Shown here piece after piece: positions 40,905 through 60,913 of a stretch of 64,000 nucleotides of DNA. Positions within the stretch are counted from its first letter, which is position 1; each line of letters opens with the position of its first letter. A program made the position numbers and the translations under genes. The notes under the pieces were generated by a model. The model had not been told where the DNA came from and made no database searches. It saw only the letters and a program-made list of their open reading frames with translations. The DNA is from a virus: the IMG/VR virus record IMGVR_UViG_3300041583_000284, positions 308 to 64,307 of that record; one strand, written 5' to 3'.

Positions 40905-41870
40905 TCCAGACCAGCGCCCTGTGTGTGCCCCATAGTACCGAAGCGGCACCGGGAACATACCCCGGTCAGCGATCCCGATGAACCGCGCGGTGCGCGTCTC
41001 TTCGAGGGTGGACTTGTTCCCAAGCCGCGCTGCAACGAGGGCCTGCACGTCAGGGTCGTCGTGCTCAAGCAGCGCCTTGAACTCCTCGTCGGTCTTGGCG
41101 AAGGCCCACGCTTCCTTGCCGGTGGTGGCGCTGACCTTGCGTGGGGGGTCCACGCCCATGTCCTGCAACAACCCTGCAAACTTATCGTTGGACATCAGGT
41201 CCTTCTTGTCCGCCCCCACGCGGTCCAGCAACGCCTGCTTGGCCCTGACAGTCTCGATCAGGTGGGCTTCCAGCTTGGGCTTGTTCAGTTGCAGCTGGGG
41301 TTCTGTGAACATGCGCAACGTCATGTCAATCAGCTGGAGTTCCTTTTTCGGGAACCCCCCGGGGATAGAGCCCATGAAGATGTTGAAGAGCTGATAGCAC
41401 AGGTCAGTGTCGTGCTTGCAGTATTTGCCGTAGGCTGCCAGCTCGGTAGGGGTGAAGTCTGCCCGCCGCATCCCCATCGCCCGCAGCACCTCGTCCCCCT
41501 TGGGCGGCAGGTTGTACCGCTTGGCGAGGGCTGCGAGGCCGTGCGATGCGTCGGGGCCATGAATGGCCCGTGACATAGACAACGTGTCCAGCCACAACTT
41601 AGGCTTGATGCCTAAGCGCCACGCAAGGATCGCCCCGTCGAACAGGGTGTTGTGCGCGAGGATCGCAGCGTTTGACCAGTCGATGGTGTGCAGCGCCGCG
41701 TATATCTCGAGGATGTCGCCCGAGAGCCACTTGGCTTTCTTGCCATTCTTCTTGACGGACAGCCCGATAAGTTCAAACCGGGGGTCCCGCACGTATTCTT
41801 CCGTGGTGATCTTGGATAGGCTGTACTCCTTGGAGTAAAACGTCTCCGCGTCTATCGTATAAAGATCCAT
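40581..41870 (-). CDS. DNA polymerase I family, N-terminal (3-5 exonuclease plus N-terminal polymerase) fragment ending in a 107-aa N-intein-like segment
   Basis: The extein (40905-41870) ends ...YYGAHTGRWSG. It is followed by CLVADTAVTVLD... (intein block-A-like Cys-Leu-x-x-Asp-Thr) up to the stop at 40581. Confidence 0.85.
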   Translation of the reverse strand: MDLYTIDAETFYSKEYSLSKITTEEYVRDPRFELIGLSVKKNGKKAKWLSGDILEIYAALHTIDWSNAAILAHNTLFDGAILAWRLGIKPKLWLDTLSMSRAIHGPDASHGLAALAKRYNLPPKGDEVLRAMGMRRADFTPTELAAYGKYCKHDTDLCYQLFNIFMGSIPGGFPKKELQLIDMTLRMFTEPQLQLNKPKLEAHLIETVRAKQALLDRVGADKKDLMSNDKFAGLLQDMGVDPPRKVSATTGKEAWAFAKTDEEFKALLEHDDPDVQALVAARLGNKSTLEETRTARFIGIADRGMFPVPLRYYGAHTGRWSGCLVADTAVTVLDTSGTMHEKKITDVMPDDLVWDGVAFVQHEGVVFSGFAEVIEWDGVRGTEDHVVFTDAGEIGLRDAMQGGHYLTSGGRPDPDAVDPNVHRRGRIKV

Positions 41871-46719: not shown

Positions 46720-46738
46720 CTTAGTCCCGAGGACTAAG
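46720..46738 (-). repeat. junction palindrome P1 (CTTAGTC-N5-GACTAAG)
   Basis: CTTAGTC CCGAG GACTAAG, between the stop at 46741 and the ATG at 46705. Confidence 0.85.
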
Positions 46739-47921: not shown

Positions 47922-47942
47922 ACTTAGTCGGGATGACTAAGT
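47922..47942 (-). repeat. junction palindrome P2
   Basis: ACTTAGTC GGGAT GACTAAGT. Abuts the GR1 stop. 21 nt containing CCAACCAAGGAGAG precede the ATG at 47900. Confidence 0.9.
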
Positions 47943-48175
47943 TAGTTGTCGCCGTCGCCGGAGCCGTCGCCGGAGCCGTAGCCATCGCCGTAGCCGTTGC
48001 CGAAGCCGTAGCCGAAGCCGTTGCCGAAGCCATCGCCGTTGCCGTTGCCGAAGCCGTAGCCGAAGCCGTTGCCGAAGCCGTTGCCGAAGCCGTAGCCGTC
48101 GCCGTCGCCGTAGCCGTAGCCGTCGCCGTAGCGGGACCCCGCCCACACCAGCGGGCGCAGGAACGTCCAGATCAT
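47942..48175 (-). CDS. Gly-rich micro-protein GR1 (MIWTFLRPLVWAGSRYG leader plus Gly-X repeat core)
   Basis: 77 aa. Its ATG overlaps the GR2 stop (ATGA). Its TAA stop abuts palindrome P2. Confidence 0.7.
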   Translation of the reverse strand: MIWTFLRPLVWAGSRYGDGYGYGDGDGYGFGNGFGNGFGYGFGNGNGDGFGNGFGYGFGNGYGDGYGSGDGSGDGDN

Positions 48176-48348
48176 TGTTCACCTCTGTTCCCATTGCCGT
48201 AGCCGTAGCCGTCGCCGTCGCCGTCGCCGTCGCCATCGCCGTAGCCGTAGCCGTCGCCGTAGCCGTTGCCGTTGCCGTTGCCGTTGCCGTGGCCGTGGCC
48301 GTAGCGGGACTTCGACCACACCAGCGGCCGCAGGAAAGTCCAGATCAT
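48172..48348 (-). CDS. Gly-rich micro-protein GR2
   Basis: 58 aa, MIWTFLRPLVWSKSRYGHGHGNGNGNGNGYGDGYGYGDGDGDGDGDGYGYGNGNRGEQ. The ATG at 48348 overlaps the stop of the 278-aa ORF (ATGA). The 3-prime end encodes the GAGGTGA RBS for GR1. Confidence 0.7.
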   Translation of the reverse strand: MIWTFLRPLVWSKSRYGHGHGNGNGNGNGYGDGYGYGDGDGDGDGDGYGYGNGNRGEQ

Positions 48349-49181
48349 AGCGCTGCGTAGAGGCACTCTACCTGCATAGTGTGGGTTGAGCGCTCGAACC
48401 CGTGGTGTCTGATCTGGAAGATCCGCTCTGGTGCGAGGTCAGAGAGCTCGGTGTCCATGCCATTGGGCAATTCTGGGATCAGGTATGGCCGGTGGAGGGG
48501 CTGCTCGGGGCCGTGCCGATACCCTGAGCTGGAATACTTAGGCGCTAGCTTATGGGCGTCGTCGTTGCCCAGCGCACACCATGCGGTACAGGCCGCATGC
48601 AGATTGTGCAGAGCTTTCTTCTCCTCCGGGGTGCGCTTGACCGGCACACGGACCGGGATGTTGTCGCCGACGGCCTTGCTCTGCGGGCTGGGGATGTAGG
48701 CCATGGGCCGGTTGTAGTGGTTCACACCAACTGCCGACCACGCGGACGCCCACTGCCACGCGGCGTTGCGCCCCTTGTCGTTTCGGTAGTTGCTACCAAT
48801 ACCCACGCTGCGCCCGGTGCTCGCATCGAGGAGCAGGAGCTGCGAGTCTCCTCTGTTGATCCACGCCTTGGGCAGGGGCTTGGCTGCCAGAACGTCGGCG
48901 TCCTGCCTGCACAGTGCGAGCACCGCGCGTGCCTCGGGGGTCAGGCTGTCTTTGCCAAGCGACAGTGCGGGGCAGTCCCCTTCCACGCTGCTGACCACAC
49001 GCAGGTCACTCTCGCCCCGCCCGAGCCTGCGCTCCATGCCGCGATGATCGGGCTTGAAGTCCCGCGCCGAGAGCAGAACTTCGCCGCTCTCGAACACGAT
49101 CAGATTGTGCTCGGGCTCGTTGTAGAACCGCTTGAAGCGATCCCAGCGGGCGTCTTTGTTGTCGAATGTTGGGAGTTTCAT
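48345..49181 (-). CDS. hypothetical protein
   Basis: 278 aa. AAAGGAAAG RBS after palindrome P3. Confidence 0.55.
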   Translation of the reverse strand: MKLPTFDNKDARWDRFKRFYNEPEHNLIVFESGEVLLSARDFKPDHRGMERRLGRGESDLRVVSSVEGDCPALSLGKDSLTPEARAVLALCRQDADVLAAKPLPKAWINRGDSQLLLLDASTGRSVGIGSNYRNDKGRNAAWQWASAWSAVGVNHYNRPMAYIPSPQSKAVGDNIPVRVPVKRTPEEKKALHNLHAACTAWCALGNDDAHKLAPKYSSSGYRHGPEQPLHRPYLIPELPNGMDTELSDLAPERIFQIRHHGFERSTHTMQVECLYAAL

Positions 49182-49205
49182 GTTGTTTGCTTTCCTTTGG
49201 TTGGG

Positions 49206-49224
49206 CTTAGTCGGAATGACTAAG
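49206..49224 (-). repeat. junction palindrome P3
   Basis: CTTAGTC GGAAT GACTAAG, directly after the GR3 stop. Confidence 0.9.
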
Positions 49225-49365
49225 TCAGTTGCCGTAGCCGTAGCCGAAGCCGTAGCCGTCGCCGAAGCCGTAGCCGAAGCCGTAGCCGTAGCCGCCGCCG
49301 TCGCCGTAGCCGTAGCCGTAGCGGAACCGGGACCACACCAGTGGGCGTAGAAAGCCCCAGATCAC
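49225..49365 (-). CDS. Gly-rich micro-protein GR3
   Basis: 46 aa, (V/M)IWGFLRPLVWSRFRYGYGYGDGGGYGYGFGYGFGDGYGFGYGYGN. The GTG start overlaps the vWA gene stop (GTGA). The TGA stop abuts palindrome P3. Confidence 0.6.
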   Translation of the reverse strand: MIWGFLRPLVWSRFRYGYGYGDGGGYGYGFGYGFGDGYGFGYGYGN

Positions 49366-50621
49366 AGCTCGTGACCCTTGATGTGTGTCGTGGCCCCGTG
49401 GGCGGGGCGGGCGCTCTTGTTGTCGAGGATAGTCCACAGGACCGGGCAGGTCCACGTTCCCCAGCCGCCGCCGAGGTAGCCGTCAGTCAGCACGATGACC
49501 GCCTGTGGTGCGATACCATTCTTGTTGAGGAACTCCGGCACGCACTCGACCATGGTGCCGCCACCGCCCGCAGGCTTAGTCGAGGCGACTAAGTTGGGCA
49601 GGTCTTGCTCGAGATACACCTCGTGTCTGCACACTTCGGTATCCCAGTACAGCAGGTGGACGCGCTCGGGGCGCACGGAGTCTGCGATGCCGCGGACCTC
49701 GCTCAAAAACGATGCCAGTTGCGGTCCTCCGATAGACCCCGACGTGTCTATCGCCACGCAGATGTCCTTGACGCGCTCGGTGGTGCCACTGGGCATGTAG
49801 TAGCCGCCGATGAAGCGACGGTTGGGCCGCTTCCACGTGGAGAAGTCAGACCCTGCGCAGGTTGTCGTGATGAAGTCGCGCAGCGCTGTGCGCCAATCCA
49901 CCTGTGGCTGCATCAGGTCGTCGAGGGAGCGATCGCCACCGGACCCCGTCTTGCCTGCCATCAGCGCGCCTTGACGCACTGCCTCGTCAATGTCACGGGC
50001 CAGCGCTTGCTTGTCCGCATCGGGCATATCCTGCGCCCCGTCCCAGTCGTGCATATCGAAACCTTGACCGGACTGGCCCTCGCCTTGGCCCTCGCCTTGG
50101 CCCTCGCCTTGGCCCTCGCCTTGGCCCTCGCCTTGGCCCTCGCCTGACTTGGCGTTCTTGAGCAGATCGTGGAACACCGCAGCGCTGTCCCAGTCGCGGT
50201 ACTTCTCGTCGAAGCAACCGGTCCGCAGGGCACCGGTCATGGTGGCGAAGTGATCTGACTTGTTGTCATCTACCAGCTTGATGTTGATGACGAAGTCGCA
50301 AGCCTGATTGGCCATCTGAGCATGGCGCAGGTACATCCACCGCCACGTGGTCAGGTGCTTGTACAGCTTGTGATAGTTCTCGTGCAGGACGAGGAACCGC
50401 AGCTCGGAGTCCTTGAGCGATGCGATGAAGTCGGGGTTGTAGACCTCATTCATGCCGTCCGTGGCCGCAGTATTCACAGGGCTGCGACGTATGTGGGTAT
50501 CCACCGTGCGGCTGCCGATCATCAGCACGCCCGCCAAGGCGCGATACCTCTCGTGGTGCATGATCGCAATGACAGCCTTTTGCAGGCGCTGTTCTGGAGT
50601 GAGTTTGCCGTTCCCAAACAT
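49362..50621 (-). CDS. vWA-domain protein with an N-terminal putative metallopeptidase domain (CobT/DUF2201-like)
   Basis: 419 aa. HExxH in FLVLHENYHKLYKH. MIDAS motif in VAIDTSGSIGG. Internal perfect (GEGQ)6 repeat. Confidence 0.75.
   Translation of the reverse strand: MFGNGKLTPEQRLQKAVIAIMHHERYRALAGVLMIGSRTVDTHIRRSPVNTAATDGMNEVYNPDFIASLKDSELRFLVLHENYHKLYKHLTTWRWMYLRHAQMANQACDFVINIKLVDDNKSDHFATMTGALRTGCFDEKYRDWDSAAVFHDLLKNAKSGEGQGEGQGEGQGEGQGEGQGEGQSGQGFDMHDWDGAQDMPDADKQALARDIDEAVRQGALMAGKTGSGGDRSLDDLMQPQVDWRTALRDFITTTCAGSDFSTWKRPNRRFIGGYYMPSGTTERVKDICVAIDTSGSIGGPQLASFLSEVRGIADSVRPERVHLLYWDTEVCRHEVYLEQDLPNLVASTKPAGGGGTMVECVPEFLNKNGIAPQAVIVLTDGYLGGGWGTWTCPVLWTILDNKSARPAHGATTHIKGHEL
49575..49593 (-). 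repeat. palindrome P4 (intragenic copy)
   Basis: CTTAGTC GAGGC GACTAAG inside the vWA gene, encoding NLVASTKP. Confidence 0.8.
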
Positions 50622-50643
50622 GGGGTATTCCTTCCTTGATTGG

Positions 50644-50664
50644 ACTTAGTCGGGATGACTAAGT
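50644..50664 (-). repeat. junction palindrome P5
   Basis: ACTTAGTC GGGAT GACTAAGT, after the GR4 stop. Confidence 0.9.
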
Positions 50665-50888
50665 CAGTTGCTGTTGCCGTAGCCGAGGCCGAGGCCGTAG
50701 CCGTCGCCGCTACCCCATCCGTTGCCGCTGCCCCATCCGTTGCCGTAGCCGCGGCCGTAGCCGGGGCCGTGGCCGTGGCCGTAGCCGTCGCCGTAGCCGG
50801 GGCCGTGGCCGTCGCCGTAGCCGTAGCCGTCGCCGTCGCCGTAGCGGGACTTCGACCACACCAGCGGGCGCAGGAACGTCCAGATCAT
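50664..50888 (-). CDS. Gly-rich micro-protein GR4
   Basis: 74 aa with the MIWTFLRPLVWSKSRYG leader. ATGA overlap with GR5. The TGA stop abuts palindrome P5. Confidence 0.7.
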   Translation of the reverse strand: MIWTFLRPLVWSKSRYGDGDGYGYGDGHGPGYGDGYGHGHGPGYGRGYGNGWGSGNGWGSGDGYGLGLGYGNSN

Positions 50889-51061
50889 TGTTCACCTCCG
50901 TTCCCATTGCCGTAGCCGCAGCCGTCGCCGTCGCCGTCGCCGTCGCCATCGCCGTAGCCGTAGCCGTCGCCGTAGCCGTTGCCGTTGCCGTTGCCGTTGC
51001 CGTGGCCGTGGCCGTAGCGGGACTTCGACCATACCAGCGGGCGGGCAAAGAGCCAGATCAT
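50885..51061 (-). CDS. Gly-rich micro-protein GR5
   Basis: 58-aa ORF read by hand, below the track length cutoff: MIWLFARPLVWSKSRYGHGHGNGNGNGNGYGDGYGYGDGDGDGDGDGCGYGNGNGGEQ. The ATG overlaps the stop of the upstream 252-aa ORF (ATGA). Near-duplicate of GR2. Confidence 0.65.
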   Translation of the reverse strand: MIWLFARPLVWSKSRYGHGHGNGNGNGNGYGDGYGYGDGDGDGDGDGCGYGNGNGGEQ

Positions 51062-51816
51062 TCGCTACTCTTTACCCACGCAGTGAACGACCCGTAGTCG
51101 GGGGCGCTCGCGTGCTCCTCGGTGTAGTAGGCGTCGTGCTCCTCATACACAATTTTGCGGAGTTCTTTCTCTACTGCTGGCACCTCTGCCCCGTAGTCTG
51201 CGATCCCAGCGGAGACGCGCAGATTCTCCCACTGGTCCCGGTCCAGCAAGGCCACGAGGGTATCAGGCCAGCCCGGCTGCCCCCTGTGCATCTGCTCGTT
51301 ACCAAGCAAGGCTGCCATGGGCTTGTACCATGCGAGGAAGTCCTTGAGACCGGACACTTCCATGGCCTTGTTTGCCTTCTTGCGGTCTACCCGCACACGG
51401 GCGATAGGGCGCGTGTCCTCGCTGGCGTGGGTCAGCCTGCCCTCTGCGTCAAGGCGCACCTGGGCCCCGGGCTTATAGTAAGCATCGCCGGAACGAAGGG
51501 CCTTGCACTCCCCGCTTATGCCGGCGCCCCGAGGCATGAAGCGATCGGCGAAGGCCGCGGTGCTCTGGCTCTCGTAGTTGAGGTCCAGCGTGCATGTGTT
51601 GTCGGGGTGCCACTGCACCACCTCAGTGCTGTGATAGATGAAGCAGATCGTGCCGTCGTGGCTCTTTGACAGCCCGGTGAAGTGGGCGCTGTGGCGGGGC
51701 ATGGCATGTGTGCCCGAGCGACCGTAGGTGTTCTTGCGCAGCTTGGCCTTGTCGAACAGGGCTGCTGCCTCTGCGTAGGTGTTGAGGCGTCTGACGCCGG
51801 GCATTTGAAGTCTCAT
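51058..51816 (-). CDS. hypothetical protein
   Basis: The ATG at 51816 (MRLQMPGVRR...) follows palindrome P6 and an AAGGAAGGA RBS. The track ORF start at 51882 would read through the palindrome and GR6. Confidence 0.55.
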   Translation of the reverse strand: MRLQMPGVRRLNTYAEAAALFDKAKLRKNTYGRSGTHAMPRHSAHFTGLSKSHDGTICFIYHSTEVVQWHPDNTCTLDLNYESQSTAAFADRFMPRGAGISGECKALRSGDAYYKPGAQVRLDAEGRLTHASEDTRPIARVRVDRKKANKAMEVSGLKDFLAWYKPMAALLGNEQMHRGQPGWPDTLVALLDRDQWENLRVSAGIADYGAEVPAVEKELRKIVYEEHDAYYTEEHASAPDYGSFTAWVKSSE

Positions 51817-51839
51817 GGTTTTAGTCCTTCCTTGGTTGC

Positions 51840-51860
51840 ACTTAGTCGGGATGACTAAGT
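51840..51860 (-). repeat. junction palindrome P6
   Basis: ACTTAGTC GGGAT GACTAAGT, after the GR6 stop. Confidence 0.9.
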
Positions 51861-51952
51861 CAGTTGTGGTTGTAGCGGCCATAGCCGAGGCCGAGGCCGT
51901 AGCCGTAGCGGGATTTCGACCACACCAGCGGGCGGGCGAAGAGCCAGATCAT
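51860..51952 (-). CDS. Gly-rich micro-protein GR6 (shortest member)
   Basis: 30 aa, MIWLFARPLVWSKSRYGYGLGLGYGRYNHN. The ATG overlaps the HNH gene stop (ATGA). The TGA stop abuts palindrome P6. Confidence 0.55.
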   Translation of the reverse strand: MIWLFARPLVWSKSRYGYGLGLGYGRYNHN

Positions 51953-52584
51953 GTCACTGATCCTTTCTTTGGCACGAGTAGTGCTAGGCCCCGCACACCC
52001 TTGCGCCACCGGCTGTCCACTGTTGAGTACGGCAAGCCGTATTCTCGGACAGCATCTGTCAGGGCCAATCGGCGGTCGGGCAGGTAGACCCACCGGGTCT
52101 GGCGACGGTTGTTCAGTTGCTCAGTCATGGTGACCCAGCGCACGTTACCGGGCTCGTAGCCCCGCTCGTTATCAATCCGGTCCAGTGTACTGTGCCGATC
52201 TTGGGTAGGTGCGGGACCGATGTGGGCGTAGAACAAGGCAAAGTCCGCCTCCCACGCGGGGAGCATGGCTATGCCGCGCCCCCCATAGTTGTGGTATTTA
52301 GGGTTCTTTGGGTTGTTGCATCGCTGCTTTGCAGCAATCCACGCAACCCATTCTTTGCCGTGGGCCAGACCATGCCTAGCCCTACGGCGATTGCTTTCGG
52401 CGACGCCGCACTTTACCGAACAGGAGATAGCCCCTGTCCGCAAGTGGCTGCCGGTCTTTATGCAGATGTTCCCACAGTCGCATTGGCATTCCCACCGAGC
52501 TTGCCCGTCGTGGCTACTGTCCACTTGTCTAGTTACAAGTAACTTTCCTTGGCGTATTCCAGCCCACTGAACTAGGTTGCCCAC
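51949..52584 (-). CDS. HNH homing endonuclease (paralog of 39971-40717)
   Basis: 211 aa, GTG start. CQCDCGN...CSVKCG zinc region, YHNYGGRGI, STLDRIDNERGYEPGNVRWVTMTEQ. Same architecture as the polymerase-associated HNH. Confidence 0.75.
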   Translation of the reverse strand: MGNLVQWAGIRQGKLLVTRQVDSSHDGQARWECQCDCGNICIKTGSHLRTGAISCSVKCGVAESNRRRARHGLAHGKEWVAWIAAKQRCNNPKNPKYHNYGGRGIAMLPAWEADFALFYAHIGPAPTQDRHSTLDRIDNERGYEPGNVRWVTMTEQLNNRRQTRWVYLPDRRLALTDAVREYGLPYSTVDSRWRKGVRGLALLVPKKGSVT

Positions 52585-52600
52585 TTAGGTTTCTCCCCTG

Positions 52601-53701
52601 CTATTGATCCGCCCCGAAGAGGTAGGCATGGGCCTGAACCCAGCGAGTGAAGCTCTTGTTAAGCAGCACTACGGACTGCTTGGCATACTTCGGGGAGCGA
52701 ACACCGTTCGCAAACAGACCTTGCGCTTCCGCGTCTAACTTGTCAACGTAAATCATCCAGTTGTCCACCCAATCTGCTTCCATGGTTGACAGCGCCCGGT
52801 ATACTACCATGCACGTGGCAGCGGCCGAGGTGGGCACCTTGGCGTTGGCCGGGTCGTTCTTGATCGAGGCATGGCTGGGCAGGTCGTTGGCCAGCCTTAC
52901 GAAGGCCATCAGGTCCATCGCTGCCCGGTCCCCGAGGGTGCCCATCAGGGCGGCAGTCAGGGTCATGTCGTCCACCTTGCCCATGGTGGCCTTGATGATG
53001 TTGCTGGCCTTCTCCAGCGAACGCCCGGTCACGAACGCCTTGCGGCTCGGGTCACGTGGGTGGAAGATGTAGGGGTTCTGGTCTGGCTCCTTGACTTCCT
53101 CGAAGGACTGGAACAGCTGCGGGTTGTCGCGCACCCAGCCCAGCAACGTGTGGTCCACGCCGTTGGAGATACCCCACTCCAGCCACTCCATGTGGCTCGG
53201 CTTGCGCACGGTCAGCACCGAGATGCGGTTCCACTGGTGGGGCAGCAGCATATCCCCAACGCCTTCGGCGCCGAGGTTGGTGGTGGCAAACACAATGCTG
53301 TCTGGATGCATCGTGTACCCTGCCATCTTGCGCTCGTAGAGGATGCGGGTCAGTGCGTTCTTCACCGAGGGGTTGGCTTTGCCAAGCTCGTCGATCATCA
53401 AGATGATGGGCTGGTCGCACAGGTGCATGCCAAGCTCCTCGTTGGTGGCAAACCGCACGAAGGGTGCGCCGCCCGATGCCTCGGCGAGGTTGGGGATCAT
53501 GATGTCCCCGAGGTCCTTGGTTGTGCAGTCAAAGTAGACTGGCAGGTGGTTGGGCAGGCTCTTGCCGAGCTGGCCCAGCAGGGCTGACTTGCCGATGCCA
53601 ATACCGCCTTGCAGCAGGTAGGTCACCGTGTTGCCCGAGGCCTCGATGAGTGCTGCGCACTGGTCAAGGCTCACGTCGTAGATTGCGTTTGCTCGTGTCA
53701 T
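52601..53701 (-). CDS. MoxR/CobS-like AAA+ ATPase
   Basis: 366 aa. Walker A QGGIGIGKSAL, Walker B ILMIDELGKA, then IVFATTN. Confidence 0.8.
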   Translation of the reverse strand: MTRANAIYDVSLDQCAALIEASGNTVTYLLQGGIGIGKSALLGQLGKSLPNHLPVYFDCTTKDLGDIMIPNLAEASGGAPFVRFATNEELGMHLCDQPIILMIDELGKANPSVKNALTRILYERKMAGYTMHPDSIVFATTNLGAEGVGDMLLPHQWNRISVLTVRKPSHMEWLEWGISNGVDHTLLGWVRDNPQLFQSFEEVKEPDQNPYIFHPRDPSRKAFVTGRSLEKASNIIKATMGKVDDMTLTAALMGTLGDRAAMDLMAFVRLANDLPSHASIKNDPANAKVPTSAAATCMVVYRALSTMEADWVDNWMIYVDKLDAEAQGLFANGVRSPKYAKQSVVLLNKSFTRWVQAHAYLFGADQ

Positions 53702-53722
53702 TGTGTGTATTCCTTTGGTTGA

Positions 53723-53743
53723 ACTTAGTCGGGATGACTAAGT
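53723..53743 (-). repeat. junction palindrome P7
   Basis: ACTTAGTC GGGAT GACTAAGT, after the GR7 stop. Confidence 0.9.
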
Positions 53744-53934
53744 TAGTTGTCGCCGTAGCCATCGCCGTAGCCGTTGCCGAAGCCGAAGCCGTAGCCGTAG
53801 CCGTCGCCGTTGCCGTTGCCGTAGCCGAAGCCGTGGCCGTAGCCGTTGCCGAAGCCGTTGCCGAAGCCGTAGCCGTCGCCGTCGCCGTAGCGGGACCCCG
53901 CCCACACCAGCGGGCGGAGAAAGCCCCAGATCAT
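53743..53934 (-). CDS. Gly-rich micro-protein GR7
   Basis: 63 aa with the MIWGFLRPLVWAGSRYG leader. ATGA overlap with GR8. The TAA stop abuts palindrome P7. Confidence 0.7.
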   Translation of the reverse strand: MIWGFLRPLVWAGSRYGDGDGYGFGNGFGNGYGHGFGYGNGNGDGYGYGFGFGNGYGDGYGDN

Positions 53935-54173
53935 TGGCCACCTCCGTTCCCGTTTCCATAGCCGTCGCCGTCGCCGAAGCCGTAGCCGTAGCCATCGCCG
54001 TTGCCGAAGCCATCGCCGTTGCCGTTGCCGAAGCCGTAGCCGAAGCCGTTGCCGAAGCCGTTGCCGAAGCCGTAGCCGTCGCCGGAGCCGTCGCCGGAGC
54101 CGTTGCCGAAGCCGTAGCCGCTACCGTAGCGGAACTTCGACCACACCAGCGGGCGGAGAAAGCCCCAGATCAT
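53931..54173 (-). CDS. Gly-rich micro-protein GR8
   Basis: 80 aa with the MIWGFLRPLVWSKFRYG leader. The ATG at 54173 overlaps the upstream TAA by 1 nt (TAATG). Ends GGGQ, encoding the GGAGGTGG RBS for GR7. Confidence 0.65.
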   Translation of the reverse strand: MIWGFLRPLVWSKFRYGSGYGFGNGSGDGSGDGYGFGNGFGNGFGYGFGNGNGDGFGNGDGYGYGFGDGDGYGNGNGGGQ

Positions 54174-54451
54174 TATGCCAGTGCTTCGATCCATGCTGCG
54201 CTCTCATTCACAGGCAGGGCAAAGATGATGTGGATATTCGGCACCAAGATGAGAGGCGCCTTGGCGTCCAGCACGGTGTCTTTGGTCGGGCCGTCAAAGA
54301 GCTGGTTCAGCCCGTGTGCAGTGCCCCACTTGCGGATGGTGCGGGCATCGTAGAGTTCCACGAAGCCGTCGTTGCCACCCCGTGCCCGGCCGACCATAAC
54401 GTGGCCAGCAGTGATTACGAGGATCGCGAGAGTTGGTGTTCCAAAGTTCAT
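54173..54451 (-). CDS. hypothetical protein
   Basis: 92 aa from the ATG at 54451 (MNFGTPTLAILVITAGH...), with a GGAGA RBS after palindrome P8. The track ORF extension to 54688 reads the GR9 region out of frame. Confidence 0.5.
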   Translation of the reverse strand: MNFGTPTLAILVITAGHVMVGRARGGNDGFVELYDARTIRKWGTAHGLNQLFDGPTKDTVLDAKAPLILVPNIHIIFALPVNESAAWIEALA

Positions 54452-54474
54452 GGTAGTCTCCATAGGTTGTTGTA

Positions 54475-54495
54475 ACTTAGTCGGAATGACTAAGT
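54475..54495 (-). repeat. junction palindrome P8
   Basis: ACTTAGTC GGAAT GACTAAGT, after the GR9 stop. Confidence 0.9.
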
Positions 54496-54740: not shown

Positions 54741-55039
54741 TTCAGTCTGGCGTGCATCACCTGCCACTCCTCCGGCCACAGCAGGGTCGGCACATCCTTC
54801 AGTGCGAAGACTTGCGGCTCTCCGTCCTCCACACGGATGCTGTATGTGGCACGGAGCCAAGGCTTGTGGTTGTGATAGGAGCCGCTGCCTGTCTCCGTGA
54901 TCTGCATGGTGATCTTACCCTTGATCGACTTAGGCGGCATGCCTAAGAGGGTGGCGATCATGAACAGCTTCTTAAACTCTATGAAGGTTGCGATCTGCTC
55001 GTGCAGGTTGGCGATTGCTTTGTCGATGATGTCGATCAT
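54737..55039 (-). CDS. hypothetical protein
   Basis: 100 aa, ATGA-coupled upstream and downstream. Confidence 0.5.
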   Translation of the reverse strand: MIDIIDKAIANLHEQIATFIEFKKLFMIATLLGMPPKSIKGKITMQITETGSGSYHNHKPWLRATYSIRVEDGEPQVFALKDVPTLLWPEEWQVMHARLK

Positions 55040-55525: not shown

Positions 55526-55543
55526 CGTCTTCTCCTTTGTTGT

Positions 55544-56050
55544 TTAACTTAGTCGTTGTGACCGAGTGGTTTTCCATGGGGCTTTGCCCGCGATCACGCG
55601 GCGGACTGCAGCGGCCGCTTGTGCCGGGCTGCACGGGTCTGGGGCCAGCACGGCGTCGAACAGCGGATGCCCCTTGTGCACCGCCATTTCGCTCTCGTGC
55701 AGATTGCGGCTGAGGCCGAGGAACCCCAAGGCGGCGTCTCTTGTGGCTGCCCAGTCGCCTTCCGTGTCCTTCAGCAAGGCCTGCTGCCGCTTGAGGGATG
55801 GGAAAATCTCCCCCGGCTCTGCGACAGACATGAGGTGTGCGGCCCCTGCGATGCAGCAAACGGTGCCACAGTCAGGCTTCAGCATCTCGTCCGTGCGCCG
55901 CAACAGGCTGCCCAAGGTGCTGCAATCGCCGGTGGCGTCGGCCACTCCGTCGTCCGTGGCGGCGCAGATACCCAGCTCCATGTTGAAATAGGCATGTGGT
56001 GCGCCGGCCTCGAGCCACTCGGCGAGCTGTGTCAGGTGTGGGATATGCAT
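55544..56050 (-). CDS. hypothetical protein
   Basis: 168 aa. AAAGGAAC RBS after P10. Its 3-prime end runs through degenerate palindrome P9. Confidence 0.55.
   Translation of the reverse strand: MHIPHLTQLAEWLEAGAPHAYFNMELGICAATDDGVADATGDCSTLGSLLRRTDEMLKPDCGTVCCIAGAAHLMSVAEPGEIFPSLKRQQALLKDTEGDWAATRDAALGFLGLSRNLHESEMAVHKGHPLFDAVLAPDPCSPAQAAAAVRRVIAGKAPWKTTRSQRLS
55547..55567 (-). repeat. junction palindrome P9 (degenerate arm)
   Basis: ACTTAGTC GTTGT GACCGAGT. Overlaps the 3-prime end of ORF 55544-56050. Confidence 0.7.
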
Positions 56051-56072
56051 CGTCTTGTTCCTTTCTTGGTTG

Positions 56073-56093
56073 ACTTAGTCGTTGTGACTAAGT
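56073..56093 (-). repeat. junction palindrome P10
   Basis: ACTTAGTC GTTGT GACTAAGT. Contains the stop of ORF 56088-56321. Confidence 0.9.
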
Positions 56094-56321
56094 GGTGTAA
56101 GTATGGGCCTCGGGCCGCCCAGCTTCTTGGTCAGCAGCCCACTTGTCATGCAGGTCGTTGTGCTGGACGAGTGCAGTGGCCTCGTCAGGGGCTTCCTGCC
56201 AGACATAGGCGTCGGCGTCGTCCACAATTGCCCGGCCAGCAGGCGTGGCGAAGGTTGCCTCAGTCATGCAGGCTGGCTCGAAGGCGTTGTCGCTGTGTTC
56301 GTAGGTGCAGTATCTTGGCAT
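56088..56321 (-). CDS. hypothetical acidic protein
   Basis: 77 aa. Its stop codon is the TAG inside palindrome P10. Confidence 0.5.
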   Translation of the reverse strand: MPRYCTYEHSDNAFEPACMTEATFATPAGRAIVDDADAYVWQEAPDEATALVQHNDLHDKWAADQEAGRPEAHTYTT

Positions 56322-56344
56322 TGTCTTGTTCCTTTCTCGGTTGA

Positions 56345-56363
56345 CTTAGTCGTTGGGACTAAG
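56345..56363 (-). repeat. junction palindrome P11
   Basis: CTTAGTC GTTGG GACTAAG. Contains the stop of ORF 56359-56649. Confidence 0.9.
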
Positions 56364-56649
56364 AGTGAAAGCCAAAGTGGCCATTGCTCTCGTCGGCTCT
56401 GGCGGAGTCTGGGTGCCACACGGCACAGATCTGGTAAGCGATCGGCCCCAGCGGGTCTGCACGATAGGTAGCTGTGATTTCGAGGCTGTCGGCGGACGCA
56501 TGACCAATCAACTCAGCATAAGCATACTGAGCGGAGCTGCTGGCCCACTGGGACAGATAGCCAATGGCTTGGTGCATGTCGTCGCGTCCAGTAACAGACT
56601 CAATCTTTGTGAGGGTGTCCGGCTCGATGTTCAGATGCGTGGTTCTCAT
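56359..56649 (-). CDS. hypothetical protein
   Basis: 96 aa. Its stop codon is the TAG inside palindrome P11. Confidence 0.5.
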   Translation of the reverse strand: MRTTHLNIEPDTLTKIESVTGRDDMHQAIGYLSQWASSSAQYAYAELIGHASADSLEITATYRADPLGPIAYQICAVWHPDSARADESNGHFGFHS

Positions 56650-56673
56650 TTGGTTGGTTCCTTCTGTTGTTGA

Positions 56674-56692
56674 CTTAGTTGTTGTGACTAAG
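56674..56692 (-). repeat. junction palindrome P12
   Basis: CTTAGTT GTTGT GACTAAG (one inner mismatch). Contains the stop of ORF 56688-57113. Confidence 0.85.
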
Positions 56693-57113
56693 CAGGGCGT
56701 GCGTCGCCCTGCGGGATCGGTGCAGCGAGGGCCTGCATGATGGCAAGGTAGTGCTCATCCACGATGGTGTGGCACAGTTGCTCCTTCTGCTCCTTCGACA
56801 GGCCCTTGAGGTGCTTCAGGTGCTTGGCCTTTTGCTTATCGAACACAGCTCGGGCGTCGGCGAGATCCTCTTCTGTATGACGCCACGGCAACGGGGTGCA
56901 CCACTGGGTGTGCAACGGGGTGTGCCACACCATCGTGTGGTGCAGTTGTTCCCTCGACATGCGCTTGAGGCGCTTGAGATGCTTGGCCTTTTGCTCCTCG
57001 AACACAGCTCGGGCGTCGGCGAGATCCTCTTCTGTATGACGCTGGGGGAAGATCAGCGTGCAGCGCGCGTTTTCGTACCGTGCGGCGGCGGCGGCCTTGC
57101 GGACTTTGGGCAT
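56688..57113 (-). CDS. hypothetical protein with an internal tandem duplication
   Basis: The ATG at 57113 (MPKVRKAAAA...) follows P13 and an AAAGGAAC RBS. RHTEEDLADARAVF(E/D)(E/K)QKAKHLK(R/H)LK occurs twice. The stop is the TAG inside P12. Confidence 0.5.
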   Translation of the reverse strand: MPKVRKAAAAARYENARCTLIFPQRHTEEDLADARAVFEEQKAKHLKRLKRMSREQLHHTMVWHTPLHTQWCTPLPWRHTEEDLADARAVFDKQKAKHLKHLKGLSKEQKEQLCHTIVDEHYLAIMQALAAPIPQGDARPA

Positions 57114-57134
57114 CGTCTTGTTCCTTTCGGTTGA

Positions 57135-57153
57135 CTTAGTTGTTGTGACTAAG
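57135..57153 (-). repeat. junction palindrome P13
   Basis: CTTAGTT GTTGT GACTAAG. Contains the stop of ORF 57149-57409. Confidence 0.85.
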
Positions 57154-57409
57154 CGCTTGTTGCAAACATAACTGTCACGTCGTGGCAATCGCACGGCAGG
57201 ACACCGTATTCGGCGGCGTCATGGTAACGTGCGAAGTGAGACTGCTCGGCGGCATCGGCGTAGGTCAGCGGGCCAAACTCCATCACCATGTCTGTTTCCC
57301 AGCGGGTGAAGGCGCGTGCCTCATTGTCGTCGAGGCCTGTCGTGTCGCCGTTGATGCACGCAGGCAGCCAGTGGGTCGGCAGTGCGAGGGTGAGTCGGTC
57401 GAATGTCAT
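57149..57409 (-). CDS. hypothetical protein
   Basis: The ATG at 57409 (MTFDRLTLALPTHW...) follows an AGAAGGAAC RBS. The stop is the TAG inside P13. Confidence 0.5.
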   Translation of the reverse strand: MTFDRLTLALPTHWLPACINGDTTGLDDNEARAFTRWETDMVMEFGPLTYADAAEQSHFARYHDAAEYGVLPCDCHDVTVMFATSA

Positions 57410-57428
57410 GGTGTGGTTCCTTCTGTTG

Positions 57429-57632
57429 TTAGATTTGAAAATCAGCGACGACGCCGTTTTTTTGGCACTGGGGGCAGATGCAGCTTGCATACTCATCCCA
57501 GTCGCTGTCCCAGTTGGGCAGTTTCTTGTCGTCTGTATCGAAGCCATCGGCGTCGTACCTGCCCCACACACTAGCAGTGATGTGGAAGGCCTTGTTCTGG
57601 CCACAGTTGGGGCACTTCATGTCTTCCAGCAT
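57429..57632 (-). CDS. small zinc-ribbon protein (first early ORF)
   Basis: The ATG at 57632 follows P14 and an AAAGGAAC RBS. MLEDMKCPNCG...CICPQCQ (two CxxC pairs). Confidence 0.5.
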   Translation of the reverse strand: MLEDMKCPNCGQNKAFHITASVWGRYDADGFDTDDKKLPNWDSDWDEYASCICPQCQKNGVVADFQI

Positions 57633-57653
57633 AGTGCGGTTCCTTTCGGTTGA

Positions 57654-57672
57654 CTTAGTTGTTGTGACTAAG
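57654..57672 (-). repeat. palindrome P14 (upstream of the first early ORF)
   Basis: CTTAGTT GTTGT GACTAAG. Sits in a 31-bp block identical to the P12 region. Confidence 0.85.
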
Positions 57673-57970
57673 CAGGGCGGTGTCGCCCCGCTGCGTTGTT
57701 TCCTTGAACGTCTGCCTTGTGTGTTCCTTGGCCTGTTGTCAGCAGGCATGACTTGACGGCTCTGTCGGTGTCGTGGGGTTTTAGTGGCTATCGCTTGGCC
57801 GTGCGTCATGCACGGGGGTCTGGAGGCTTCTTAGGCAGGTTCGGCGTCGCTTCACAGCGGGGCTTACTTCTCCGATAGCATACACCCTCTTGTCCGAGAG
57901 ACGTATGGCAGATCATCTAGCATCATCGAGGCATTGTTTCCGGCTATGCCATCTCTGGCGTAGCCAGATA

Positions 57971-57991
57971 ACTTAGTCGGGGGGACTAAGT
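57971..57991. repeat. palindrome P15 (non-coding leader region)
   Basis: ACTTAGTC GGGGG GACTAAGT. Confidence 0.85.
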
Positions 57992-58074
57992 GCCTCTAGC
58001 GTTTGGTTATGGTCCACGTGCCATGCAGGGCAGGCGGCTGATAAAGAGCTGGCAAGCGCCTCACGACGCGGCCA

Positions 58075-58093
58075 CTTAGTCGCAAGGACTAAG
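58075..58093. repeat. palindrome P16 (non-coding leader region)
   Basis: CTTAGTC GCAAG GACTAAG. Followed by a second inverted repeat, GAAGCGGC...GCCGCTTC (58096-58126). Confidence 0.85.
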
Positions 58094-58135
58094 CACGAAG
58101 CGGCACCAACTGCATCTGGGCCGCTTCGTACTATT

Positions 58136-58163
58136 AGAATATCATGGTGGCACCTCATATCAA
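58136..58163 (-). promoter_or_regulatory. leftward early promoter candidate
   Basis: Read on the minus strand: TTGATA (58163-58158), 16-nt spacer, TATTCT (58141-58136). Lies upstream of P16, P15, P14 and the first early ORF. Pattern match only. Confidence 0.3.
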
Positions 58164-58340
58164 GCAGTTTGTTCTAGAAGTGGGCATGTTTGTTTAGGAA
58201 GGTTTCGTGGTTTCTGATGGTGGGAGATGGCACACTTTTGTTAATGCTATGCTGTGTCTGTCGGTTTAGTGGTGGGAGGTGGCGGGGTGTGAGAACTGGC
58301 ATTGGTGGGCAGTGTTGGGGAGTGTGAGGTTTGTGGGGGG

Positions 58341-58359
58341 CTTAGTCGTCGGGACTAAG
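58341..58359. repeat. palindrome P17 (control region)
   Basis: CTTAGTC GTCGG GACTAAG. Confidence 0.85.
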
Positions 58360-58559
58360 TGGCAATGGATGGTATGAAAACAGAACTGCTACCCTGTGTC
58401 TGTCGGTTTAGACGTATATGGTGGTATGGGAACAGAACTGCTACCCTGTGTCCCAAAGTTTGGTGGTGTATGGTGGTTTATGCATGTATCTGCTGAGGGT
58501 TTTTCGGCGGTTTCGGATGGGGTCGGTATATGGTAGCATATGGTTGTAAGGGGTGGTAT

Positions 58560-59009: not shown

Positions 59010-59318
59010 ATGGCTACTGAGCGAGACCTCGACCGCGCGCAGGCAATCCACAATTACGGTAGAAACTGCTACTTTTGTGCAGCTGGCCCTCTGGAGCGAC
59101 GCGCTTTATTCCTGAAACCCCTCGGGCCCAACAACACCAACGTGCCTATGTGCAAAACGTGTTGCCATGCCGTCGATACAGGCGTGTCGCTGCGTCCCAT
59201 CCTGCTCGCGCACTTGAAGCGTGGTCGTGCACTTGAAGCTGTCGCCAGTCTGCGCCTGACCGAATACGGCTGGGCCACACCGCGCAGACCCGAGCACCTA
59301 CTTAGTCACGAGGACTAA
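59010..59318 (+). CDS. zinc-ribbon protein, paralog A
   Basis: ATG at 59010 inside track ORF 58860-59318. MATERDLDRAQAIHNYGRNCYFCAAGPL...CKTCCHAV. The N-terminus and CxxC spacing are shared with paralog B. Confidence 0.55.
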   Translation: MATERDLDRAQAIHNYGRNCYFCAAGPLERRALFLKPLGPNNTNVPMCKTCCHAVDTGVSLRPILLAHLKRGRALEAVASLRLTEYGWATPRRPEHLLSHED

Positions 59319-59379
59319 GTCCCGCCCCGGCCAAAGCCGCGGGGTTCCGAAGTCCCGTCGCTGTTGGAGAACTGGCTTC
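59297..59379 (+). repeat. 83-bp repeat element, copy 1 (palindrome plus GC-rich tail)
   Basis: CTTAGTCACGAGGACTAAGTCCCGCCCCGGCCAAAGCCGCGGGGTTCCGAAGTCCCGTCGCTGTTGGAGAACTGGCTTC. Confidence 0.85.
59300..59320 (+). repeat. palindrome P18 (plus-strand unit)
   Basis: ACTTAGTC ACGAG GACTAAGT. Contains the TAA stop of ORF 59010-59318. Confidence 0.9.
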
Positions 59380-59398
59380 CGTTTTGAAAGGACACAAC

Positions 59399-59707
59399 AT
59401 GGCTACTCAGAGAGATATTGACCGCGGGCTTGCGCAGCGCAGGTATGGCAAAAGCTGCTACTGTTGCGGGAAAGGCCCGCTGTCGGGGCACGGACTGTTC
59501 TTGGCGCCTATTGGCTACACCGAGTACGCAAACACTGCCCACCCGCTTGCCCCCGTGTGCGCCTCGTGCCGCACAGCGCTCAAAACTGTCCCGACCCTCC
59601 GCCACATTGAGAACCTGCGTAGGGACCTGCGTAAGTGTCTGGTGACCACGCGGCGCTGGGCGGACGAGATCCACGGACTGGACTTTGCTTACCTCAGTGA
59701 GAACTGA
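59399..59707 (+). CDS. zinc-ribbon protein, paralog B
   Basis: ATG at 59399 after a GAAAGGA RBS. MATQRDIDRGLAQRRYGKSCYCCGKGPL...CASCRTAL. Confidence 0.55.
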   Translation: MATQRDIDRGLAQRRYGKSCYCCGKGPLSGHGLFLAPIGYTEYANTAHPLAPVCASCRTALKTVPTLRHIENLRRDLRKCLVTTRRWADEIHGLDFAYLSEN

Positions 59708-59790
59708 CCCGCTTAGTCACGAGGACTAAGTCCCGCCCCGGCCAAAGCCGCGGGGTTCCGAAGTCCCGTCGCTGCTGGAGAACTGGTTTC
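59708..59790 (+). repeat. 83-bp repeat element, copy 2
   Basis: Near-identical to copy 1. Tandem with copy 3 at an 86-bp period. Confidence 0.85.
59712..59730 (+). repeat. palindrome P19
   Basis: CTTAGTC ACGAG GACTAAG, 5 nt after the stop of ORF 59399-59707. Confidence 0.9.
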
Positions 59791-59793
59791 TGG

Positions 59794-59876
59794 CCCGCTT
59801 AGTCACGAGGACTAAGTCCCGCCCCGGCCAAAGCCGCGGGGTTCCGAAGTCCCGTCGCTGTTGGAGAACTGGTTTC
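59794..59876 (+). repeat. 83-bp repeat element, copy 3
   Basis: Near-identical. Followed by an AAAGGAAAG RBS-like sequence but no ORF. Confidence 0.85.
59798..59816 (+). repeat. palindrome P20
   Basis: CTTAGTC ACGAG GACTAAG, in the third copy of the 83-bp element. Confidence 0.9.
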
Positions 59877-59977: not shown

Positions 59978-60805
59978 TTACTTGATATCGGCGGGGTTCT
60001 GTTTCGCCGTCTGGCCCTTCACAGGCGCGGGACTCTTGCTAGCCTTTACTTTTGTTGCAAGGGGCTTGGGCTTCCGGTCAATCTTGGCGCTTGCCTTGTC
60101 AGCGGCCAGAACCGCGTCATAGGCGGCAAGGCACAACCGCGCCAAGTTTTGTTTTTCCTTCACAGGTGACAAGGCAAGCAAGGCAAGCTCGCAAAGACGC
60201 AAGTAAGCGGGCGCATCGACGTGGGGCGGTATCTGTTCGCCCTTGCCATTAGTCGCGGCAAGTGCCGTTGCCATTGCTTTCATTGGCGCACCCATTGCGT
60301 CGATAGCGCGTTGATCAATTGGCGCTTTGCGATTTGGGGCTTTCGTTCCATCCGCCGCGATAGGCGCGGCATTGTCCGCTTTGGTTTGCGCGATTGCTTT
60401 GGCAATCCGGTCCGTGATGCGACCGAACACCTTTCCCTTTTGCATCTGCCAATAGAGCCGCGTATTGCTTGCCATGCCTTTCTTGGGCGCGCCGATCATA
60501 TCCTTTGCGCCCTTGCCATTGTTCACCTTATCGGTGAACACCTTACCCCAAGCCTCCACGACCGCCGCGTCCTTCAAGATGATATAGGCGTTCCTTTCCT
60601 CTACACTTGCATCCTTGTCGCGTGATGTAGCAGTAAGGCAACGGGCAGACCCGAACGTGGCCACGGCGGCATCGTGTACGGCCATTGCCGCTGCCATTGC
60701 AATCACGCTGGCCGTTGCTTCCCTATCCAAGGCACGAATGGCCAAGGGGATAGTGGACAAGATAAGGTCTAGATTCGGGCGGGGGCTATTTGTTTCGATT
60801 TTCAT
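59978..60805 (-). CDS. hypothetical protein (stand-alone leftward gene in the control region)
   Basis: 275 aa, Ala/Lys-rich. Has its own promoter candidate and twin terminators. No domain recognised. Confidence 0.6.
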   Translation of the reverse strand: MKIETNSPRPNLDLILSTIPLAIRALDREATASVIAMAAAMAVHDAAVATFGSARCLTATSRDKDASVEERNAYIILKDAAVVEAWGKVFTDKVNNGKGAKDMIGAPKKGMASNTRLYWQMQKGKVFGRITDRIAKAIAQTKADNAAPIAADGTKAPNRKAPIDQRAIDAMGAPMKAMATALAATNGKGEQIPPHVDAPAYLRLCELALLALSPVKEKQNLARLCLAAYDAVLAADKASAKIDRKPKPLATKVKASKSPAPVKGQTAKQNPADIK

Positions 60806-60890: not shown

Positions 60891-60894
60891 TAGA

Positions 60895-60913
60895 CTTAGA
60901 CCCAAGGACTAAG
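60895..60913. repeat. palindrome P21 (one mismatch)
   Basis: CTTAGAC CCAAG GACTAAG, 5 bp from the -35 of the promoter candidate at 60862-60890. Confidence 0.6.

Follow-up and report, generated by a model that had tools for sequence, protein, structure and literature searches.

The 64,000-nucleotide stretch analysed here (the window), a 64,307-bp IMG/VR viral contig minus its first 307 bases, carries many copies of a 19-base palindrome, CTTAGTC-N5-GACTAAG. We judge it an even call that these copies make up a phage-private operator network, that is, duplex DNA sites which would be bound by a dimer of a co-evolving early phage protein. The argument draws on relatives of this phage, in which near-identical genomes carry different palindromes at orthologous sites, and it leads to the product of the first early gene, called E1 here, as the best candidate for the protein that would bind them. 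A sequence-only reading of the window, which had concentrated on the gene junctions where many copies lie, did not consider a sequence-specific factor acting in trans.

The palindrome is a real and strongly non-random feature of the window. With up to three mismatches allowed, CTTAGTC-N5-GACTAAG is present in 24 copies where 1.1 were expected, and the 8-mer ACTTAGTC occurs 26 times against an expected 0.7; neither count was reached in any of 100 shuffles. Sixteen of the copies in the window are perfect and all lie within 41598-60913. Copies are given here as read on the minus strand, the transcript sense, where the palindrome shuts two of the three reading frames, with TAG in one arm and TAA in the other.

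Using the VWA protein as probe we collected 80 related viral contigs (49-95% identity), which with the window make 81 loci, labelled here with L numbers, and 8 further contigs were added via E1 homologues, of which at least 200 were found. At least four perfect copies of one hairpin-type repeat with 7-bp arms were found in 45 of the 81 loci, and the arms are lineage-specific, for example GTTAGTG, GTTAGGG, GTTAGGC, GTTAGTC, TTTAGGG, GTTATAC, GTTATCA, GTTCTAC, GTGTAAC, TGTAGTG and GTATGCG. The centre is 3 nucleotides (nt) long in half of the family copies, the commonest length among the relatives, and its length is uniform within 34 of 44 scorable loci. As in the window, the copies of five complete relatives are grouped within 3-10 kb where the early operon begins and hardly occur in the remainder of the genome; two of these relatives have single copies lying apart.

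Evidence for a trans-acting factor comes from pairs of close relatives. L046 and L047 share 94-97% DNA identity over ~14 kb (the VWA protein is 99.3% identical, the ATPase identical and the DUF3150 protein essentially the same, all three within 99-100%), and at no fewer than four orthologous sites GTTAGGC-N3-GCCTAAC of the former is replaced exactly by TGTAGTC-N4-GACTACA in the latter, the flanks being unchanged and the length of the centre switching along with the arms. L047 also has one hybrid site and one site of the old type (a GTTAGGC copy at 8649). A second pair, L032 and L039 (89% identical), has GTTAGTC in one and GTTAGGC in the other at all five orthologous sites. Neither drift nor the turnover of duplicated junctions can yield such a concerted arm swap with unchanged flanks. 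That near-identical phages have had the arms swapped together at orthologous sites requires a sequence-specific factor acting in trans, and implies a phage reader that co-evolves with its sites; the pattern is that of promoter-polymerase or operator-repressor pairs. As a separate observation, L106 (11433 and 18157) carries two palindrome types together, GTTATAG five times and GTTAGGG twice; such mixtures, in L106 and L047, may be relics of a switch in specificity or may reflect a second reader.

The features of the window that bear on E1 and on early transcription are these.

59978..60805, minus strand: E1, the first early gene, 275 residues, of no known family; candidate palindrome-binding factor.
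60862-60890: candidate E1 promoter, TTGTTA-17-TATAAG, adjoining the palindrome at 60895-60913.
60895..60913: palindrome copy directly upstream of the candidate E1 promoter.
58136..58163, minus strand: sigma-70-like early promoter, TTGATA-16-(TG)TATTCT; the L006 counterpart is TTGACA-17-TATTCT.

Ahead of E1 stands its own candidate promoter, and after it come two strong intrinsic terminators (59942-59969 and ~59895-59930). It is the first early gene wherever sequence covers the region, and sequence search detects it in only some loci; in the L046 group the protein has 167 residues. Within E1 we noted a conserved K-R-W/Y-x-Q-Q-Q-x-G-x-R helix, and a segment of the helix changes from KRWIQQQIGSRLNRVIQHV in L046 to RRFVTTEMGSRLGKVIRHV in L047. 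Among 15 genomes the threonine of V-T-x-[HY]-V was present in all six phages of GTTAT type and in none of the nine of GTTAG/TGTAG type, an association not corrected for phylogeny. In all 14 genomes in which such a copy could be placed, a palindrome precedes the E1 ATG by 90-165 nt. A TTGACA-17-TAnnnT-type promoter is present in the stretch before the E1 start in most genomes scanned and, where the palindrome was located, this promoter falls between that copy and the ATG. The AlphaFold model of E1 is all-helical, with a pLDDT (predicted local distance difference test) score of 86.

If the operator reading holds, host RNA polymerase would start at sigma-70-type promoters, one serving E1 and one the early operon. 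Accumulating E1 would then occupy the copy upstream of its own promoter together with the 5-24 copies across the early operon and, once bound, would act as a global repressor or a roadblock of early transcription, in the way that stoperators work in Cluster A mycobacteriophages or OB sites, bound by KorB, on plasmid RK2. The expected effect would be repression. A more far-reaching version, in which the whole clade uses a private operator code, with E1 as a new all-helical fold, helix and sites switching together and a heteroimmunity-like exclusion between co-infecting relatives, we hold only tentatively; on that version, co-switching of helix and sites even at 94-97% identity would point to competition between co-infecting relatives.

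The sequence comparisons bear on whether the palindrome acts as DNA or as an RNA hairpin. In L112 and L059 (GTTAG[T/C/G]C), L113, L108 and L110 the half-sites vary independently and pairing is lost; they are drawn from a small repertoire, and C.A mismatches fall in mid-stem. Both pairs are lost in 29 of 38 doubly deviant copies. Symmetry also extends into the centre: in four lineages, A-N-T triloops account for 29/42, 8/9, 6/6 and 14/17 of the copies, the two outermost bases of 4-nt centres are complementary in 48 of 82 (25% expected), and L106 has a perfect 18-bp palindrome, GTTATAGAGCTCTATAAC. Since this dyad symmetry reaches positions unable to pair in a hairpin, it points to duplex DNA rather than RNA. 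So does the length of the centre, which is lineage-specific, mostly uniform within a genome and changed together with the arms between L046 and L047. G.U mismatches are not in excess over A.C (12 against 28 in raw counts, 5 against 7 after de-duplication), and no Rfam match was found at E <= 1 across 44000-64000. The conserved copy upstream of the E1 promoter lies, by its position, outside the E1 and early transcripts.

Several points weigh against the operator reading as we have put it, and they concern both E1 and the nature of the site. E1 has no recognisable DNA-binding domain, with no assignment by Foldseek, by PDB profile or sequence search or by Pfam, and winged-helix Pfam matches were sub-threshold only, in 8 of 37 E1 members. 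The helix-arm association described above carries its phylogenetic caveat. The comparison of L046 with L047 spans 15 kb, so the factor could lie elsewhere, and two other small genes, p68 (~45% identity) and p117 (~60%), both values judged by eye, also diverge between these two, which makes E1 a lead and not a result. Turning to the site, compensatory changes were seen in 5 of the 38 doubly deviant copies where about one was expected (a set that includes both CTTAGGC copies of the window), which fits a stem-loop; in 10 of 45 loci the spacer is not of one length, a variation that a rigid dimer should not accept; the loop bases are A/C-rich on the sense strand; and in RNA folds of 12 junctions the hairpin was dominant in all 12, with a strong ribosome site and the ATG left unpaired.

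These last points are also the case for the strongest rival, in which a hairpin with a 7-10 bp stem, ~20 nt before the start, is read in the polycistronic early mRNA by a phage RNA-binding protein or endoribonuclease that would process, stabilise or translationally shut off early cistrons, compare Cas6 with CRISPR repeats or RegA/RegB of T4. The first early gene after the host-type promoter, which has no upstream open reading frame (ORF), carries a palindrome in its 5' untranslated region, as such a model would have it. So too, across the family 166 of 290 distinct perfect copies are followed within 45 nt by a ribosome site and start (median 20 nt, interquartile range 17-24), and only 9 of the 290 in the opposite direction. 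However, with all genes running one way and the gaps tiny, a position before the start does not discriminate between the DNA and RNA models. What counts against the hairpin is the loss of pairing through independently varying half-sites, the want of a G.U excess, the symmetry at positions that could not pair, the copy upstream of the E1 promoter and the empty Rfam search. We consider an RNA hairpin rather unlikely, and in weighing the two sides we found DNA roughly twice as well supported as RNA. That the palindrome acts as DNA is thus our preferred reading of the sequence comparisons.

The copies and junctions of the window, in transcript order within the early operon and then for the remainder, are as follows.

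57654..57672, minus strand: palindrome CTTAGTC-ACAAC-AACTAAG, then spacer TCAACCGAAAGGAAC and an ATG at 57632.
57429..57632, minus strand: first early-operon ORF, 67 residues, zinc-ribbon-like; TAA stop, then spacer CAACAGAAGGAAC.
57409-57431, minus strand: junction with the spacer and without the palindrome; L001 (95%-related) has the palindrome at the orthologous junction.
57135..57153, minus strand: palindrome; the TAG of its 5' arm (57149-57151) is the stop of the 86-residue ORF 57149-57409.
56674..56692, minus strand: palindrome; arm TAG is the stop of the 141-residue ORF 56688-57113.
56345..56363, minus strand: palindrome; arm TAG is the stop of the 96-residue ORF 56359-56649.
56074..56092, minus strand: palindrome; arm TAG is the stop of the 77-residue ORF 56088-56321.
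55548..55566, minus strand: degenerate copy CTCGGTC-ACAAC-GACTAAG; the 168-residue ORF 55544-56050 reads through it, with its TAA just after.
47923..54494, minus strand: six 'middle' copies, at 54476, 53724, 51841, 50645, 49206 and 47923.
46720..46738, minus strand: copy 3' of the DUF3150-like gene; next ATG 14 nt on.
54929..54947, minus strand: in-ORF variant CTTAGGC-N5-GCCTAAG, both half-sites altered.
49575..49593, minus strand: copy within the DUF2201/VWA gene, in the sole open frame.
41598..41616, minus strand: variant CTTAGGC-N5-GCCTAAG within the N-terminal half of the DNA polymerase gene.
57972..58359, minus strand: three leader copies (58341, 58075, 57972) that follow the host-type early promoter and are not followed by an ORF start.
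59301..59816: three copies (59301, 59712, 59798) in a long repeat, flanking two plus-strand 102-residue ORFs.

The sequence-only reading had seen much of this layout correctly. It had the stops at 56088, 56359, 56688 and 57149 on the TAG of the 5' arm, which holds on the minus strand; it had the Gly-rich ORFs of the middle region stopping at the stem, and in six of them the TGA or TAA indeed directly adjoins the 7-bp arm; it had noted that the palindrome supplies stops in two frames (TAG and TAA) followed by a uniform ribosome site; and it had pointed to the junction at 57409-57431, which does keep the spacer without the palindrome. Its statement that spacer and ATG follow nearly every copy was too broad, since 13 of the 24 copies are followed by the spacer T-CAACC-(A/G)A(G)AAAGGAAC, an AAGGA ribosome site and an ATG 14-24 nt after the palindrome, while three copies lie within genes, and the non-coding leader, the rightward unit and the region of the E1 promoter account for the other eight. 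The gap of 19-24 nt that it gave fits the early group (21-24 nt) and the middle group (22-24 nt) and misses copy 46720 (14 nt). The loop is ACAAC in the six early copies (57654 to 55548) and ATCCC or ATTCC in the six middle ones, each of which adjoins the stop of a Gly-rich microprotein ORF and is followed by AAGGA-ATG. The AAGGA sites sit 5-8 nt ahead of each ATG. Genes mapped at 44-58 kb overlap by ATGA or abut, except at the palindrome-bearing gaps, and the three in-ORF copies (54929, 49575, 41598) are all read in the sole open frame. Over the family the nearest upstream stop lies a median of 2 nt from the palindrome, 47 of 150 upstream ORFs stop on the arm TAG, and the distance from stop to palindrome ranges from -5 to more than 40 nt.

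Under the operator reading this arrangement calls for no special device. A site with TAG and TAA in two frames is rarely able to sit inside genes, and the tightest placement would be right after a stop and right before the 10-15 nt required by the ribosome site. The order of stop, palindrome, spacer and ATG is probably a consequence of such packing, and the layout alone is then no pointer to a translational function. This serves as a warning that junction layouts explicable by simple packing should not be taken as translational devices. Because the junctions share ~40 nt they would also serve as recombination points for gene gain and loss, which we take to be a secondary effect.

Some further observations concern the copies themselves and their immediate neighbours. 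All three in-ORF copies of the window (41598, 49575, 54929) have an in-frame ATG exactly 21 nt (7 codons) downstream, and the same was seen in one other lineage (polymerase gene; L012 10405, L021 10629); as a general rule it fails among ~12 independent in-ORF copies. The Gly-rich ORFs form a set of nine paralogous microproteins of 30-81 residues (47942-54740, minus strand), MIW(G/T/L)F(L/A)RPLVW followed by (Gly-X)n, each starting in an ATGA overlap with the previous stop, and one or two of them directly precede each middle palindrome. On the opposite strand, within the palindrome-rich leader, are two paralogous Cys-rich ORFs of 102 residues (59010-59318 and 59399-59707, plus strand), both with GAAAGGA-N6-ATG, the first stopping on the TAA inside the palindrome 59301-59319; they have homologues in L003 and no Pfam match. 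The long repeat at 59301..59816 also contains a GC-rich hairpin and the motif GAAACCAGTTCTCC. Some of the leader palindromes are followed at 4-8 nt by a motif, GA(A/T)ACCAGTTC(T/C), and distant relatives show this too (window 59300-59900; L006 5781-6080; L033, L024, L007, L062, L111, L113), and in some relatives an intrinsic terminator comes after it. Together motif and terminator suggest tandem units of 60-120 nt, which could be small RNAs or a second protein site. Finally, an iteron-like array of GGAACATT/AATGTTCC surrounds a (TA)n run at 58560-58995 of the window and is conserved in relatives (L006 6100-6400; L046 near 5590 and 6491), and a palindrome directly adjoins the AATGTTC unit in L046, L047, L107, L108, L111 and L112. 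This region is likely an origin or control region.

That the junctions look like cassette boundaries which could promote modular recombination had also been raised from the sequence, and in part this stands. The alignment of relatives showed breakpoints at palindromes. Between the window and L001 a two-gene indel (56321-55544, missing in L001) is joined inside the palindromes 56345 and 55548, a gene replacement is bounded at 57650 and 57436, and the palindrome spacer bounds a 77-residue gene (47667-47900) present in the window only. Early genes differ widely from one relative to another. In 18 close pairs 19 of 145 homology breakpoints fell in junction segments, against 3.1% expected at random, an approximately four-fold enrichment. 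Though real, the enrichment is modest, and any junction with 40 nt in common would be expected to show it. As a primary function, on the model of integron attC sites or the promoter-early stem-loops (PeSLs) of T4-type phages, recombination seems quite improbable, as 87% of the breakpoints fall outside the junctions, an enrichment would arise at any short gap between genes, and no recombinase, integrase, integron integrase or HUH/RAYT gene was found in the ORFs scanned (Pfam and PHROGs). It would also leave unexplained both the arm swaps with unchanged flanks and genes and the copy at the E1 promoter. Separately, an HNH endonuclease gene and the adjacent 252-residue gene (51949-52584 and 50885-51816), with their Gly-rich ORFs, are missing in L001, and the endpoints of this deletion are not in palindromes but within the conserved heads of those ORFs.

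Extruded DNA hairpins of the N4 type, read by a phage RNA polymerase with a transcript start a few nt downstream, are a further rival, and we regard it as very improbable. The geometry is suggestive: stems are at least 4 bp for LUZ7 early promoters, 5-7 bp for N4 and at least 6 bp for LUZ7 middle promoters, with 3-4 nt loops, a start 13-15 nt from the hairpin centre and nine early promoters in LUZ7 (PMC4496689, PMC9163698). A promoter of the N4 type would have a 5-7 bp stem, a conserved 3-nt loop and a start 11-15 nt from the loop centre. The stem size of our palindromes fits, 3-nt loops are the commonest in relatives, and arrangements of terminator then palindrome exist. The window moreover encodes a 2130-residue virion protein (25190-31582, plus strand; phrog_2206) whose family profile matches the N-terminal domain of N4 virion RNA polymerase (vRNAP) at E = 1.9e-10, but that domain only, the ejection domain. 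It is followed by a long Ala/Pro-rich linker and a helical module of 1131 residues with an invariant HExxH and LPD39 where N4 has its polymerase. The AlphaFold model of these C-terminal 1131 residues (all-helical, pLDDT 73) gave no Foldseek match below E = 0.06 and no polymerase, and phmmer of the whole protein against PDB gave no match. From its sequence and model it looks like an N4-type ejection protein without an RNA polymerase. No RNAPII-like genes were found among the window ORFs scanned; a PF00940 scan of the genome gave no match, though its control was silent. Loop sequence is not conserved and lacks the G-N-A pattern of N4, consensus host promoters stand ahead of E1 and the early operon, and a promoter scan found none at the palindrome junctions. 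A virion RNA polymerase with hairpin promoters was accordingly set aside as unsupported, no polymerase domain having been found. Intrinsic termination was rejected as well: no U-tract follows the copies (CAACC does), the arms are AT-rich (3/7 G+C), and the terminator scan flagged no junction copy on the transcribed strand and one (50643-50665) on the opposite strand only.

Least probable of all is the proposal that a terminating ribosome melts the hairpin so that each downstream gene depends on termination-reinitiation: the stops do lie inside or a few nt from the 5' arm, as the family median and the arm-TAG stops given above attest, but each ATG has its own strong AAGGA that is unpaired in every fold, some copies precede the first operon gene, where no ORF lies upstream, one precedes a promoter and others fall inside genes or in the non-coding leader, the stop-to-palindrome distance ranges widely across the family, the junction at 57409-57431 works without a palindrome, and neither lineage-specific arms nor their concerted replacement could be explained.

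The genome in which this operator network is proposed has direct terminal repeats (IMG/VR class), with completeness estimated by CheckV at 100%. Rightward from ~61.2 kb, across the ends and on to 31.6 kb, lie the structural genes, among them those for terminase, portal, tail fibre and ejection proteins and the 2130-residue virion protein. Early, middle and replication genes run leftward from ~60.9 to 31.8 kb and include a MoxR-like ATPase, the DUF2201/VWA protein, a DUF3150-like protein, an Hjc-like resolvase, Dam, an exonuclease, a split family-A polymerase, an SNF2 helicase and a DUF927 primase-helicase. For this phage there is no close phage record; the nearest cultured relative, the distant Pseudomonas phage Rollin (primase 30% identity), is without such a repeat in 42.5 kb. 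The clade is a large group of uncultured aquatic phages of 60-68 kb that otherwise look lytic. A conserved early protein of ~73 residues, C-x2-C ... LGY-x-TCL-x-CG, was seen in 32 loci (L046 6719-6940; L047 within 6738-7064; L006 6785-7005). By eye the pattern resembles TraR/DksA-type zinc fingers which, if correct, would be consistent with use and modulation of host RNA polymerase.

Literature searches for exactly the window's repeat gave no match, and comparison with known systems has to proceed by architecture. Repetitive extragenic palindromic (REP) elements with their REP-associated tyrosine transposases (RAYT), and integron attC sites, differ in having a cognate HUH transposase or integron integrase, neither of which was found in the ORFs scanned with Pfam and PHROGs. 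The PeSLs are ~100 bp, with a sigma-70 promoter and a terminator-like GC-rich stem-loop (Arbiol et al. 2010, PMC2839356); they lie between small variable early genes, end in a ribosome site and ATG and bound indels (PMC2839356; Comeau et al. 2014, PMC4122927). Our junctions are likewise intergenic modules ending in a ribosome site and ATG, with indels between relatives bounded by the motif. They differ in that only 14-24 nt separate palindrome and ATG, leaving no room for a promoter, and the promoter scan found none; the stem is AT-rich, has no U-tract and is not terminator-like, and the arms are lineage-specific. With N4-like phages the window shares short stem-loops upstream of early and middle genes, the N-terminal domain of the ejection protein and an ATPase/VWA module, the difference being that the window has host-type promoters and loops of unconserved sequence, and that no polymerase domain was found in it.

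Among mycobacteriophages, the start-associated sequence (SAS) of Cluster K is a motif that includes the ribosome site just before the starts of non-structural genes (Pope et al. 2011, PMC3203893). About half of SAS are preceded by inverted repeats, the extended SAS (ESAS), with a variable spacer and a subcluster-specific consensus, and the motif at times contains the stop of an upstream gene; its function is unknown, and one in translation has been suggested (PMC3203893). The conserved unit there is the SAS itself, an asymmetric 13-mer, and the ESAS has imperfect arms of 17 bp, whereas here the palindrome is invariant and the ribosome-site spacer only regionally uniform. Closer still are the 17-bp dyads of Cluster O, TGTTCGG-N3-CCGAACA, with invariant 7-bp arms and a variable 3-bp centre (PMC4351075), which number tens per genome (34 in Corndog), lie between ORFs or near the 5' ends of genes with few in genes, and are of unknown function (Cresawn et al. 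2015, PMC4351075). Most relatives of our phage have this same architecture, with invariant 7-bp arms and a variable 3-bp centre; the version in the window has arms of 7-8 bp and a 5-bp centre. Taken as a class (invariant inverted 7-bp arms, a variable 3-5 bp centre, more than five copies per genome, mostly between genes), the Cluster O type takes in the repeat described here, going by the 16 perfect copies of the window and the 45 of 81 loci with at least four. The phages and hosts are unrelated, Cluster O copies are genome-wide where ours are in the early region only, and lineage-specific switching with a candidate partner protein is not described there.

Multicopy intergenic palindromes of phages are thus already known from Cluster O and SAS/ESAS, with function unknown in both. 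What this clade offers is a set of clean natural experiments: near-identical phages with swapped sites, a short list of candidates and dozens of specificity variants. If the operator reading is true, it would mean a new family of DNA-binding regulators with orthogonal protein-site pairs, and it would supply a mechanism by which abundant environmental phages shut off early genes or exclude one another.

The systems nearest to that reading are the stoperators of Cluster A and the KorB OB sites of RK2, in which many dispersed copies of one short site, in transcribed regions as well as between genes, are bound by a single protein that the element itself encodes and with which the site co-evolves. 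Stoperators are asymmetric 13-mers bound by the lysogeny repressor, and KorB is a helix-turn-helix protein of the ParB family; here we detected no homologue of a repressor, of ParB or of KorB, and the ORFs scanned contained no integrase. In these phages the sites have been replaced in concert, and the helix of E1, one candidate among others, tracks the arms (six of six against none of nine) in a comparison not corrected for phylogeny.

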